Virus genome (UHGV): UHGV-1747927
Origin: a virus
Length of the DNA stretch: 10,821 nucleotides
Strand: one strand, 5' to 3'
Both the position numbers and the translations under genes were made by a program. Under the pieces are notes generated by a model that was not told where the DNA came from, did not search any database, and saw only the letters and a list, made by a program, of their open reading frames with translations. This document shows positions 6,406 to 8,596 of this stretch, one piece after another (the stretch's first letter is position 1; each line of letters begins with the position of its first letter).

Positions 6406-6451
6406 TCGCTTTGTCAGCGACGTAGGACGAATGTCCATTGTGAAAAGAGCG
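6406..6451 (-). promoter_or_regulatory. nutR-like site: boxA-like CGCTCTTTT and boxB hairpin UCGCU-GACAA-AGCGA
   Basis: Minus strand just after the cro stop. boxA-like at 6451..6443, boxB at 6420..6406 with a 5-bp stem and GACAA pentaloop. The boxA-boxB spacer is 22 nt, longer than in lambda. Confidence 0.5.
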
Positions 6452-6458
6452 GTGTTAC

Positions 6459-6659
6459 TTATGCAGTTGTTTTTTTGTTACTTGGGAAGGGCTTTATTTC
6501 TTCCGCATAAACGCTTCCATCAGCGTTTATAGTTAAAAAAATCTTTCGGCCTGCATGAATGGCCTTGTTAATCGCGCTTTGATATACGCCGAGATCTTTA
6601 GCCGTCTTGGTTTGCCCAAAGCGTATTGCATAATCTTTCAGGGTTATGCGTTGTTCCAT
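6459..6659 (-). CDS. cro: Cro repressor (66 aa), lambda-type
   Basis: The protein ([11 protein letters not shown]...[40 protein letters not shown] pattern) matches lambda Cro as recalled. It is divergent from cI across the OR operators. Confidence 0.9.
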
Positions 6660-6685
6660 ACAACCTCCTTAGTACAGGCAACCAT

Positions 6686-6753
6686 TATCACCGCTAGAGG
6701 TAAAATAGTCAACACGCACGGTGTTAGAAGTTTATCCCTTGCGGTGATAGATT
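6686..6753. promoter_or_regulatory. OR1-OR2-OR3 operators with divergent promoters pR (toward cro) and pRM (toward cI)
   Basis: OR1 is TATCACCGCTAGAGGTA (6686-6702), OR2 CAACACGCACGGTGTTA (6710-6726), OR3 TATCCCTTGCGGTGATA (6733-6749). pR -35 is TTGACT (6712..6707) and -10 GATAAT (6689..6684) on the minus strand. pRM -10 is TAGATT (6748-6753) with the cI ATG 7 nt downstream (leaderless, as in lambda). Confidence 0.85.
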
Positions 6754-6759
6754 TAATGC

Positions 6760-7473
6760 ATGAGCGCAAAAAAGAAACCGTTAACACAAGAGCAGCTTGA
6801 GGACGCACGTCGCCTTAAAGCTATTTATGAAAAAAAGAAAAATGAGCTTGGCTTATCCCAGGAATCTGTCGCAGACAAGATGGGGATGGGGCAGTCAGGT
6901 GTTGGTGCTTTATTTAATGGCATCAATGCATTAAATGCTTATAACGCCGCATTGCTTGCAAAAATTCTCAACGTTAGCGTTGAAGAATTTAGCCCTTCAA
7001 TCGCCAGAGAAATCTACGAGATGTATGAAGCGGTTAGTATGCAGCCGTCACTTAGAAGTGAGTATGAGTACCCTGTTTTTTCTCATGTTCAAGCCGGGAT
7101 GTTCTCGCCTGAGCTTAGAACCTTTACCAAAGGCGATGCGGAGAAATGGGTAAGCACAACCAAAAAAGCCAGTGATTCTGCATTCTGGCTTGAGGTTGAA
7201 GGTAATTCCATGACCGCACCAACAGGCTACAAGCCAAGCTTTCCTGACGGAATGTTAATTCTGGTTGACCCTGAGCAGGCTGTTGAGCCAGGTGATTTCT
7301 GCATAGCCAGACTTGGAGGTGATGAGTTTACCTTCAAGAAACTAATCAGGGATAGCGGTCAGGTGTTTCTACAACCACTAAACCCGCAATATCCAATGAT
7401 CCCATGCAATGAGAGTTGTTCCGTTGTGGGGAAAGTTATCGCCAGCCAGTGGCCAGAAGAGACGTTTGGGTGA
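6760..7473 (+). CDS. cI: cI repressor (237 aa), lambda-type immunity
   Basis: Near-identical to lambda cI as recalled, including the HTH region [21 protein letters not shown] and the C-terminal LexA-like autocleavage domain. Confidence 0.95.
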
Positions 7474-7504
7474 TTGTTTTATTTTTCACGTAATAGGATG
7501 ATTT

Positions 7505-7846
7505 ATGACACAATTTCAACTTGCATTAATCGCTAGAGAAGTTGATGGAGAAGTCATCCATCTTCGCACCAAAGACGGATACATCAATGCCACCGCGATG
7601 TGCAAGTCTGCGGGGAAGCTACTTGCTGACTATACACGACTAAAAACAACACAAGATTTTTTTGATGAATTATCACGCGATATGGGGATTCCCATATCGG
7701 AGTTAATTCAATCATTTAAAGGCGGAAGAGCAGAGAATCAAGGGACTTGGGTTCATCCAGACATCGCAATTAATTTAGCTCAGTGGCTATCTCCAAAATT
7801 TGCAGTGCAAGTATCGAGATGGGTGCGTGAGTGGATGTCAGGTTAA
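7505..7846 (+). CDS. KilA-N domain protein (113 aa) in the rexAB position
   Basis: KilA-N/Bro-N-like motifs (INATAMCKSAGK, GTWVHPDIAINLAQWLSPKFAVQVSRWV). AGGA lies 6 nt upstream of the ATG. It starts 31 nt after the cI stop on the same strand. Confidence 0.7.
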   Translation: MTQFQLALIAREVDGEVIHLRTKDGYINATAMCKSAGKLLADYTRLKTTQDFFDELSRDMGIPISELIQSFKGGRAENQGTWVHPDIAINLAQWLSPKFAVQVSRWVREWMSG

Positions 7847-7885
7847 AGAGCGCCTGCCGAACTCCCTATCCACCTTAAGCGGTAT

Positions 7886-8264
7886 ATGACAAACCGAGGC
7901 AGAGTTCCTCATACGCACTTTTCTATGCTTAATGAACTGACGTTTAACTTGGTTGCGCCACTTGAACAGGCCGGATATACGCTGCCAGAAAAAATGGTCC
8001 CTGATATTTCAGAGGGTAGGGTTTTCTCGCAATGGCTCCGTGACAACCGGGGGGTTGAGCCGAAGACATTCCCAACATATAACCATGAGTACCCAGATGG
8101 CCGGACATTCCCGGTACGTCTATACCCAAACGAATATTGCAGATTTCAAACAATACTTCAACGAAGTGTGGCTGCCTCAGTACGCTCCTAAATATTTTGC
8201 TGAACGAGACCAAAGGGCATTGACGTTGATTGAGAAAATCATGCTACCTGACCTTGATTCCTAA
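7886..8264 (+). pseudogene. Downstream ORF with apparent +1 frameshift (frames 7886-8191 and 7953-8264), in frame with KilA-N across a single TAA
   Basis: The 7886 frame looks protein-like up to about 8130 (...RTFPVRLYPNEY). The +1 frame looks protein-like only from about 8130 (ADFKQYFNEVWLPQYAPKYFAERDQRALTLIEKIMLPDLDS) and ends 8 nt before a terminator. The 7886 frame is the KilA-N frame and only one stop (7844-7846) separates them. Confidence 0.4.
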
Positions 8265-8272
8265 ATGTTATT

Positions 8273-8299
8273 CCCGGCCACAGAGCCGGGTTTTCTTTG
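8273..8299 (+). terminator. Intrinsic terminator ending the cI-KilA-N transcription unit
   Basis: CCCGGC, loop CACAGA, GCCGGG, followed by TTTTCTTTG. It lies directly after the stop at 8262-8264. Confidence 0.6.
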
Positions 8300-8335
8300 C
8301 CTCACGATCCCCCTCACCCAAGAACACATAACCAA

Positions 8336-8365
8336 TTGTATCTATTTGAAAATAAATAGATACAA
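8336..8365. repeat. Perfect 12-bp-arm palindrome with 6-nt spacer (TTGTATCTATTT GAAAAT AAATAGATACAA)
   Basis: Read directly from the sequence. It lies in the AT-rich intergenic region between the terminator and OL3. Confidence 0.5.
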
Positions 8366-8450
8366 CTCACTAAACATAGCAGTTCAGATCTCTCACCTAC
8401 CAAACAATGCACCCCTGCAAAAAATAAATTCATATAAAAAACATACAGAT

Positions 8451-8513
8451 AACCATCTGCGGTGATGAATTATCTCTAGCGGTGTTGACATAAATACCAC
8501 TGGCGGTGATACT
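8451..8513 (+). promoter_or_regulatory. pL promoter with OL3-OL2-OL1 operators
   Basis: OL3 is AACCATCTGCGGTGATG (8451-8467), OL2 TATCTCTAGCGGTGTTG (8471-8487), OL1 TACCACTGGCGGTGATA (8495-8511). -35 TTGACA (8485-8490), 17-bp spacer, -10 GATACT (8508-8513). Nearly identical to lambda pL as recalled. Confidence 0.85.
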
Positions 8514-8581
8514 AAACACATCAGCAGGACGCACTACTCACCAGGGCGGTGAATATACAACGATTCAAATATGAATCTACG

Positions 8582-8596
8582 GCGCTGACAAAGCGC
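8582..8596 (+). promoter_or_regulatory. nutL boxB hairpin GCGCU-GACAA-AGCGC
   Basis: A 5-bp GC-rich stem with GACAA pentaloop about 60 nt downstream of the pL start. The same loop occurs in the nutR boxB. It matches the P22 boxB-left sequence as I recall it. No clear boxA was seen upstream. Confidence 0.5.

Follow-up and report, generated by a model that had tools for sequence, protein, structure and literature searches.

The viral stretch UHGV-1747927, one strand of 10,821 nt that we refer to in full as the window, carries the early region of a lambdoid prophage in an orientation opposite to that of the lambda map. Its gene order begins with a Q-type antiterminator gene (481-999, -), nin genes, a DnaB-family helicase gene, an O-like initiator gene and a gp53-like open reading frame (ORF), continues with cII, nutR, cro, OR, cI, a KilA-N gene, Timm, OL/PL and nutL, and ends with N, a gp45-like ORF, a 108-aa ORF and a second N gene (N2; 10493-10765, +). 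Our analysis centered on positions 6406-8596 (hereafter, the focal interval), for which a first-pass annotation had proposed a lambda immunity joined to nut sites, cII and a replication module of other types. The window was aligned to lambda, P22, HK022 and imm21, the phages named in that annotation, and to further relatives: HK97 (NC_002167 / AF069529; Juhala et al., 2000, J Mol Biol 299:27), HK106 (EF120461), mEp234 (EF120460; Degnan et al., 2007, Mol Microbiol 64:232), PhiR5_2 (PV340546) and H-19B (AF034975; Neely & Friedman, 1998, 2000; Muteeb et al., 2012, PMC3526286). The sequence comparisons directly show the identities, the joint positions, the hairpins and the correspondence between N and boxB types among phages, and we infer every functional step from experiments on lambda, H-19B, and P22.

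The inner part of the focal interval is occupied by immunity genes of the lambda type. The cI gene (6760-7473, +) encodes a repressor that is 98.3% identical to lambda CI and 99.2% identical to that of HK97, with matches to the Pfam families HTH_3 and Peptidase_S24. All four differences from lambda CI (T3A, K71N, R129K, and S157Y) lie outside the helix-turn-helix helices (residues 33-52), and motifs are present at the positions expected for the cleavage site and the catalytic Ser/Lys residues. The product of cro (6459-6659, -; Pfam Cro, 8.1e-34) shares 97% identity with lambda Cro (64/66 residues). OR, together with PR and PRM (6686-6749), comprises OR1 (6686-6702), OR2 (6710-6726), and OR3 (6733-6749); OL, together with PL (8451-8513), comprises OL3 (8451-8467), OL2 (8471-8487), and OL1 (8495-8511). 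A promoter scan placed both the PR hexamers (6712-6684) and PL (8485-8513) at the expected positions. Comparison of the operators, supported by the alignment, revealed that OR2, OR3, and OL1 correspond exactly to the lambda 17-mers, and that OR1 (at 6695), OL2 (8478), and OL3 (8467) carry one substitution each. With none of the six operators differing from lambda at more than one base, the assignment of cI, cro, OR, and OL to the lambda type in the first-pass annotation was borne out. As CI would repress PR and PL through these six operators, the prophage would be expected to be homoimmune with lambda.

The substituted operators nevertheless raise the question of whether the immunity is still that of lambda. 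The OR1 change is common to HK97, HK106, and PhiR5_2, of which HK97 and HK106 are viable, and OL2 carries the same position-8 G-to-A change as OR1. The OL2 and OL3 changes were absent from the phages compared, namely lambda, HK97, HK106, HK544, and PhiR5_2, and might therefore be taken as the mark of a recent local recombinant with a new immunity specificity. We consider this very improbable, since only single bases are changed in two of the six operators, the remaining four agree with the 17-mers of lambda or of viable imm-lambda phages, and the recognition regions of both CI and Cro are unchanged from lambda. The closest relatives, at 99.97-100% identity over the region, must nevertheless have nearly all of the OL2 and OL3 changes as well. 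On the left, the lambda-like sequence starts with the Timm terminator (8273-8297, +), which the terminator scan and the alignment both recovered and which is annotated as Timm in EF120461. Between Timm and OL3, a non-coding segment (8298-8450) is conserved in the window, lambda, HK97, and HK106; H-19B, whose operators differ, shares the first part of it. Degnan and coworkers are said to have flagged this segment in 2007 as a possible regulatory element.

To either side of this module lie nut sites of a different type. When the window was scanned for GANAA loops closed by 5-bp stems, GACAA hairpins were obtained at exactly two sites, 6420-6406 (-) and 8582-8596 (+), so that the boxB loops predicted for nutR and nutL were found at both places. 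Each hairpin is located on the transcribed strand, downstream of cro or of PL, and together they form the two ends of the focal interval. Their common boxB core, CGCTGACAAAGCG, occurs 2 times in the window, compared with 0.01 expected occurrences in shuffles. The nutR boxB (UCGCU-GACAA-AGCGA; 6406-6420, -) is identical in HK97, H-19B, and HK106 and annotated as such in EF120461. It is accompanied by a spacer hairpin detected by RNA folding (GGAC-AUUC-GUCC; 6425-6436, -) and by a boxA, CGCUCUUUU, identified by alignment to lambda (6443-6451, -). The nutR of H-19B likewise contains two hairpins, the spacer hairpin and boxB (PMC3526286); both are identical in the window, and the boxA differs by one base (CGCUAUUUU in H-19B). 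The nutL region (8539-8596, +) contains three hairpins, at 8539-8551, at 8562-8577 (the spacer dyad GAUUCA-AAUA-UGAAUC), and at 8582-8596. The last is the boxB, GCGCU-GACAA-AGCGC, which is identical to the nutL boxB of H-19B, HK97, and P22 (GCGCUGACAAAGCGC). RNA folding of nutL (-19.8 kcal/mol, z = -4.74) recovered the spacer hairpin and the boxB, and alignment revealed no canonical boxA at this site. H-19B N is reported to manage without boxA, and its antitermination, again reportedly, depends on NusA and is independent of NusB/S10, as described by Neely and Friedman in 2000.

Downstream of nutL lies an N antiterminator gene of the H-19B/HK97 type (8725-9108, +; Pfam N_peptide), whose product is 99.2% identical to that of HK97 and 98.4% identical to that of H-19B. 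The first 45 residues are the same in all three proteins, including the arginine-rich motif RSRRRER. Muteeb et al. (2012; PMC3526286) studied H-19B N together with H-19B nutR/tR1 and obtained antitermination-defective mutants within this very motif. Throughout the phages compared, the type of N tracks the type of boxB: N of the lambda type goes with GAAAA/GAAGA loops (lambda, HK544, and the first N, N1, of mEp213), N of the H-19B type with the GACAA loop (window, HK97, H-19B, HK106, and PhiR5_2), N of the HK620 type with the boxB CCCGC-CGAAAU-GCGGG (HK620 and L017, a prophage of E. coli O102:H6), and N of the phage 21 type with a loop of its own (imm21). After induction, transcripts from PL and PR would carry the GACAA-loop boxB hairpins, to which the prophage's own N would bind through its arginine-rich motif, and RNA polymerase would then read through the tR1 and tL terminators. 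By sequence, the N encoded at 8725-9108 is the probable cognate of both GACAA sites, and the required N specificity appears to be supplied in cis. The expectation that the mosaic defines the N specificity needed by the prophage thus found its counterpart in an N gene with the identical arginine-rich motif.

One might object that the GACAA hairpins are not functional nut sites, or are served by another N, in which case N and nut would be mismatched and the delayed-early genes would not be expressed. The missing consensus boxA of nutL and the second N gene of another type downstream speak for such a mismatch. However, the hairpins are identical to those of H-19B, whose N has the same arginine-rich motif and acts on H-19B nutR (PMC3526286), the core motif is confined to these two sites, and the boxB cognate to N2, as found in HK620 and the O102:H6 prophage, is unlike both nut sites. 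We therefore hold a mismatch to be most unlikely.

A long stem in the N leader (8607-8713, +; -52.5 kcal/mol, z = -4.70) occupies the site of the long leader hairpin of lambda, and its arms, GGGGTG...CACC(G/A)CCAAAG, are common to the window and lambda; it is presumably processed by RNase III. Immediately behind the N stop codon, at 9108-9158 and out of frame, we noticed a fossil remnant of the 3' end (TCVGRQKMKLGSKPLI*) of an N gene of the lambda/21 type, the DNA of which is 97-98% identical to the N genes of HK544 and imm21. N of the O102:H6 prophage combines the HK620 motif with a C-terminus of the lambda/21 type. The fossil end shows that N genes are mosaics in their own right, composed of an arginine-rich-motif module and one of two C-terminal modules.

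The alignments also located the joints at which the similarity to lambda ends. Within the regulatory region, lambda matches the window only at 6445-7474 (96.3%) and 8273-8552 (91.8%). P22 matches the helicase gene and part of O (80.6% at the nucleotide level) as well as nin fragments, HK022 matches cII (5983-6327, 97.1%) and nin fragments, and imm21 matches cII (5985-6352, 91.1%). The identity breakpoints with respect to the phages named in the first-pass annotation were thereby mapped. On the right, lambda identity extends across cro into boxA, of which it includes the first seven bases (CGCTCTT), and collapses at 6444/6445. On the left, it spans Timm, a conserved stretch beside OL, the operators, and PL up to and including the transcript start CATCAGCAGGACGCACT; within 8537-8552 it decays and then disappears. 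The blastn match to lambda starts at 6445 and ends at 8552. Joints between OL and nutL and between OR/cro and nutR had been predicted, and both the blastn matches and the alignments agree with them. The right joint does lie near cro and nutR, but not simply between the two: it falls inside nutR, where boxA stays with the lambda-like block and the spacer and boxB lie beyond the joint.

Both joints are associated with short sequences that lambdoid phages have in common. A five-way alignment placed the left joint directly behind a linker at the start of the PL transcript, CATCAGCAGGACGC(ACT), the linker and joint together covering 8518-8552 (+). The linker CATCAGCAGGACGC is common to lambda, HK97, H-19B, HK620, mEp213, imm21, and the O102:H6 prophage, whatever their operators or nut sites, and thus appears to behave as a conserved linker for module exchange. 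H-19B represents the mirror case, as it aligns with the window on either side of the operators and not over them. In other complete E. coli genomes, the same cI/KilA-N block is found between other flanks, with matches ending exactly at 6445 and 8552, which identifies these positions as recurrent module boundaries. The boundaries coincide with short lambdoid-conserved sequences, boxA and the PL transcript start, at which homologous recombination would be expected to swap modules.

Beyond nutR, the prophage carries a cII gene of the 21/HK022/HK97/H-19B allele (6025-6321, -; Pfam Phage_CII, 5.1e-34). At 37.5% protein identity to lambda, compared with 97% to HK97 and 90% to H-19B, it is as divergent as the first-pass annotation had stated; its DNA is 97% identical to that of HK022 and 91% identical to that of imm21. 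A PRE cII box, TTGC-N6-TTGC, can be read from the sequence at 6299-6312 (+), where it overlaps the cII start as in lambda PRE; the motif is also annotated in HK106 and mEp213, and cII would activate PRE through this box. Antisense to the 3' end of cII, the terminator scan identified a 12-bp stem followed by a T-run (6049-6076, +). Its position matches that of oop in lambda and P22, which points to an oop-like function.

The replication module comprises an O-like initiator gene (5023-5844, -; Pfam Phage_rep_O, 5.8e-33) and, at the position of lambda P, a gene for a DnaB-family replicative helicase (3650-5026, -; Pfam DnaB, 4.5e-13, and DnaB_C, 9.5e-78). The O-like protein is 99.6% identical to HK97 gp54, 51% identical to P22 gp18, and 42% identical to lambda O, the latter over the N-terminal domain only, and the helicase is 99.6% identical to HK97 P and 90% identical to P22 gp12. 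When lambda P, ren, RexA, and RexB were compared with the window by tblastn, nothing significant was obtained; a weak match of lambda P (E = 0.058) was taken as noise. An O-like protein paired with a DnaB-family helicase instead of lambda P, as initially described, is therefore what the window encodes. Within the O gene, a repeat search detected four iterons (TTAGCYGNYTTGGCTAAT-like, 16-22 nt, spaced 20-24 bp) at 5420-5508, adjoined by an A/T-rich stretch (5385-5420). The layout follows that of lambda ori, and we regard this region as a putative origin. The O protein would bind the iterons in its own gene and work with the phage's own helicase, which would be used instead of host DnaB recruited through a loader of the lambda P type.

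Comparison with individual phages placed this combination among known relatives. HK97 has the same order and the same alleles of helicase P, O, gp53, cII, nutR, cro, OR, cI, OL, nutL, N, and gp45, with nucleotide identities of 97.8% over 3576-7469 (helicase to cI) and 91.7% over 8275-9645 (Timm to N and gp45), protein identities of 95-100%, and the same OR1 variant. It differs in the slot between cI and OL, which holds gp48/gp49 in place of the KilA-N/BstA-family pseudogene of the window. The two also diverge in the nin region, in Q, and past gp45, and HK97 lacks the OL2/OL3 variants. HK106 and mEp234 also carry lambda cI, cro, and operators between a nutL and a nutR with GACAA boxB, along with an H-19B-type N and a non-lambda cII, and their GenBank annotation lists boxA and boxB of nutL and nutR, the six operators, PRM, PR, PL, PRE, the cII box, and Timm. 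Their rex slot, however, contains hicAB and an ORF, and the loop of their nutL spacer hairpin is GAGA rather than AAUA. HK544, which belongs to the Degnan set, has retained lambda-type nut sites and N. As it and others have kept these, both flank alleles are known beside the lambda immunity module. PhiR5_2 is the sole phage record that spans the whole focal interval (100% coverage at 97.6%) and contains an intact 253-aa KilA-N/BstA-family gene; in contrast to the window, its cII is 71% identical and its replication module consists of O and a DnaC-type protein rather than O and a DnaB helicase.

The more distant phages share individual modules. H-19B resembles the window in N (98.4%) and cII (90%) and is identical in nutL, the nutR spacer, and boxB, but it has its own repressor, cro, and operators, lambda-type O and P, and the boxA variant described above. 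P22 has the identical nutL boxB, a helicase with 90% and an O-like protein with 51% identity, whereas its immunity region (c2/cro) is unrelated in specificity. P22 gp24 and the N of the window are similar only over the C-terminal 30 residues (70%), and the N-terminal arginine-rich motifs are related but not the same. Since no more than these 30 residues align, the N of the window is not an orthologue of gp24, although the system works like that of P22. Lambda itself shares cI, cro, OR, OL, PR, PL, Timm, and the nutR boxA with the window; its boxB loops, N, cII, O specificity domain, P, ren, and rexAB are either different or absent there.

Uniform identity across the whole window to a single known phage had been named as the observation that would contradict a mosaic. 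For the focal interval this was closely approached, by PhiR5_2 as well as by two complete E. coli genomes (CP147050.1 and EC2641) in which the interval is 100% identical, and HK97 comes close to it over 3576-7469 and 8275-9645; for the 10.8-kb window it was not observed. Among phage records and complete E. coli genomes, none covers at least 80% of the whole window, so that a single known source was rejected; this is usual for lambdoid prophages. Over 5814-9159, identities of 99.6-100% were found in several assemblies, and a metagenome contig (L023) is 100% identical to the window over 2290-10821. That the closest full-length match is a short metagenome contig, and that the joints lie on sequences common to many prophages, would be compatible with an assembly chimera in which reads from lambda-like and HK97/P22-like prophages had been joined at shared sequences. 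This explanation is, however, so improbable that it can practically be set aside: the same joints occur in the isolated and sequenced phages HK97, HK106, mEp234, and PhiR5_2, and the interval is 100% identical in the two complete chromosomes and 99.97% identical in independent assemblies.

The rex slot between cI and Timm is filled by an inactivated KilA-N gene, a candidate member of the BstA family (7505-8264, +; Pfam KilA-N, 1.7e-27). Alignment with PhiR5_2 revealed two lesions: at 7844-7846 a GAA codon has become TAA, and 2 bp are missing between 8136 and 8137. The intact PhiR5_2 homologue (253 aa) has an N-terminal KilA-N domain (Pfam, 8.2e-27), and its C-terminal half matches the PADLOC BstA model (2.5e-20). 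BstA is a prophage-encoded abortive-infection protein, the gene of which is typically located just downstream of the repressor gene (PMC8585504). The 113-aa product of the truncated allele was found in 1,970 index blocks of a public collection, which indicates that the lesion is real and widespread and not a sequencing error. The truncated allele often resides in degraded prophages at the lambda attachment site.

N2 (10493-10765, +) is an intact N gene of the HK620 type, 98% identical to HK620 N and 99% identical to mEp213 gp47. It has its own leader (10124-10492), a Shine-Dalgarno sequence, and a long leader stem, and is located approximately 1.4 kb downstream of the cognate N. In HK620 and the O102:H6 prophage, the HK620-type N is the only N, and nutL and nutR each contain its boxB; in the window, the two nut sites are of another type. 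An intact second HK620-type boxB was not found in the window, which contains only a partial copy at 10119-10133 that is expected by chance in 25% of shuffles. At the junction 10113-10135, the terminator tL2a is cut within its 5' stem and fused to the 3' part of an HK620-type boxB. The fused sequence, CCAUC-CGAAAU-GCGGG, has two stem mismatches and does not fold into a hairpin, and the fusion has also destroyed the terminator, GCCCTC-CAGTGT-GAGGGC-T(n), with which the boundary sequence ends in lambda, HK97, and HK620. Apart from one mismatch, the same junction is present in mEp213, also a two-N phage, whose first N is of the lambda type. No further copy was found in IMG/VR besides mEp213 itself, and of the 5,426 complete E. 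coli genomes, 0 contain the junction as a contiguous sequence. A small number of draft assemblies and metagenomes do carry it. In three near-identical relatives, a 1-nt deletion at 10591 cuts N2 to 39 aa.

The boundary sequence itself, approximately 100 bp at 10015-10123, is 98% identical to lambda 33945-34046 and occurs in 2,217 of the 5,426 E. coli genomes. Copies stand on both sides of the N2 module in mEp213 (L007; 3467-3568 and 4864-4965) and in L019 (12037-12135), which suggests that the cassette was inserted by recombination between boundary copies. In the simplest reading, N2 is an N module that has hitch-hiked along and lacks a functional site in cis. It is an unlikely alternative that the arrangement is functional and not debris: N2 would then be expressed from the PL operon and either act in trans on co-resident phages or prophages of the HK620 type or use the hybrid hairpin as a nut site for a second stage; if true, this would constitute a two-N relay or cross-talk system. 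The question about N2 that the first-pass annotation had framed in terms of N specificity thus leads to an N2 that lacks an intact cognate site here, and we favor the hitch-hiking module.

Some features of the window lie apart from these modules. The late antiterminator gene (481-999, -) encodes a 172-aa Q-family protein unlike the Q proteins of lambda or HK97, and it resembles H-19B Q only weakly (32% over 79 aa). The 108-aa ORF (9684-10010) has no Pfam or PADLOC match, and a DNA search of the phage collection with 9646-10014 gave no match. This ORF is rare in public data (32 index blocks) and always found in the same N-gp45 context. A PADLOC match to Cas1_II on the gp45-like protein (E = 0.0097) was marginal and taken as noise, and an Rfam scan of the whole window (E <= 1) returned no match.

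We conclude with high confidence that the focal interval represents the immunity region of an E. coli lambdoid prophage of the kind known as 'wild phages with lambda immunity'. The CI/Cro/OR/OL switch of lambda very probably forms one exchangeable module flanked by modules of other alleles. There is likewise little doubt that the left-side modules are the nutL and N of the H-19B/HK97 type, and we are equally confident that the right-side modules are the nutR spacer and boxB, the 21/HK022-type cII, the HK97/P22-type O initiator, and the DnaB-type helicase. Nothing was found that contradicts this interpretation. Its caveats are the single substitutions in OR1, OL2, and OL3, the lack of a canonical boxA in nutL, and the possibility that the prophage is defective: the gene in its rex slot is inactivated, and among its near-identical relatives several are clearly remnants that have suffered deletions.

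A lambda immunity module flanked by non-lambda alleles of N, nut, cII, and replication genes is textbook lambdoid mosaicism. Such mosaicism was reportedly documented for HK97 in 2000 by Juhala and coworkers, and for wild phages with lambda immunity in 2007 by Degnan and coworkers. It is a mosaic only in relation to lambda, and the combination is already known, being the same as that sequenced in HK97 and its relatives. With near-identical relatives already sequenced, the finding is of low interest and carries little weight as a discovery. It does provide a clean annotation of the window, settles which N serves which nut sites, and illustrates how modules meet at two short conserved linkers, namely boxA at the right joint and the start of the PL transcript at the left one.

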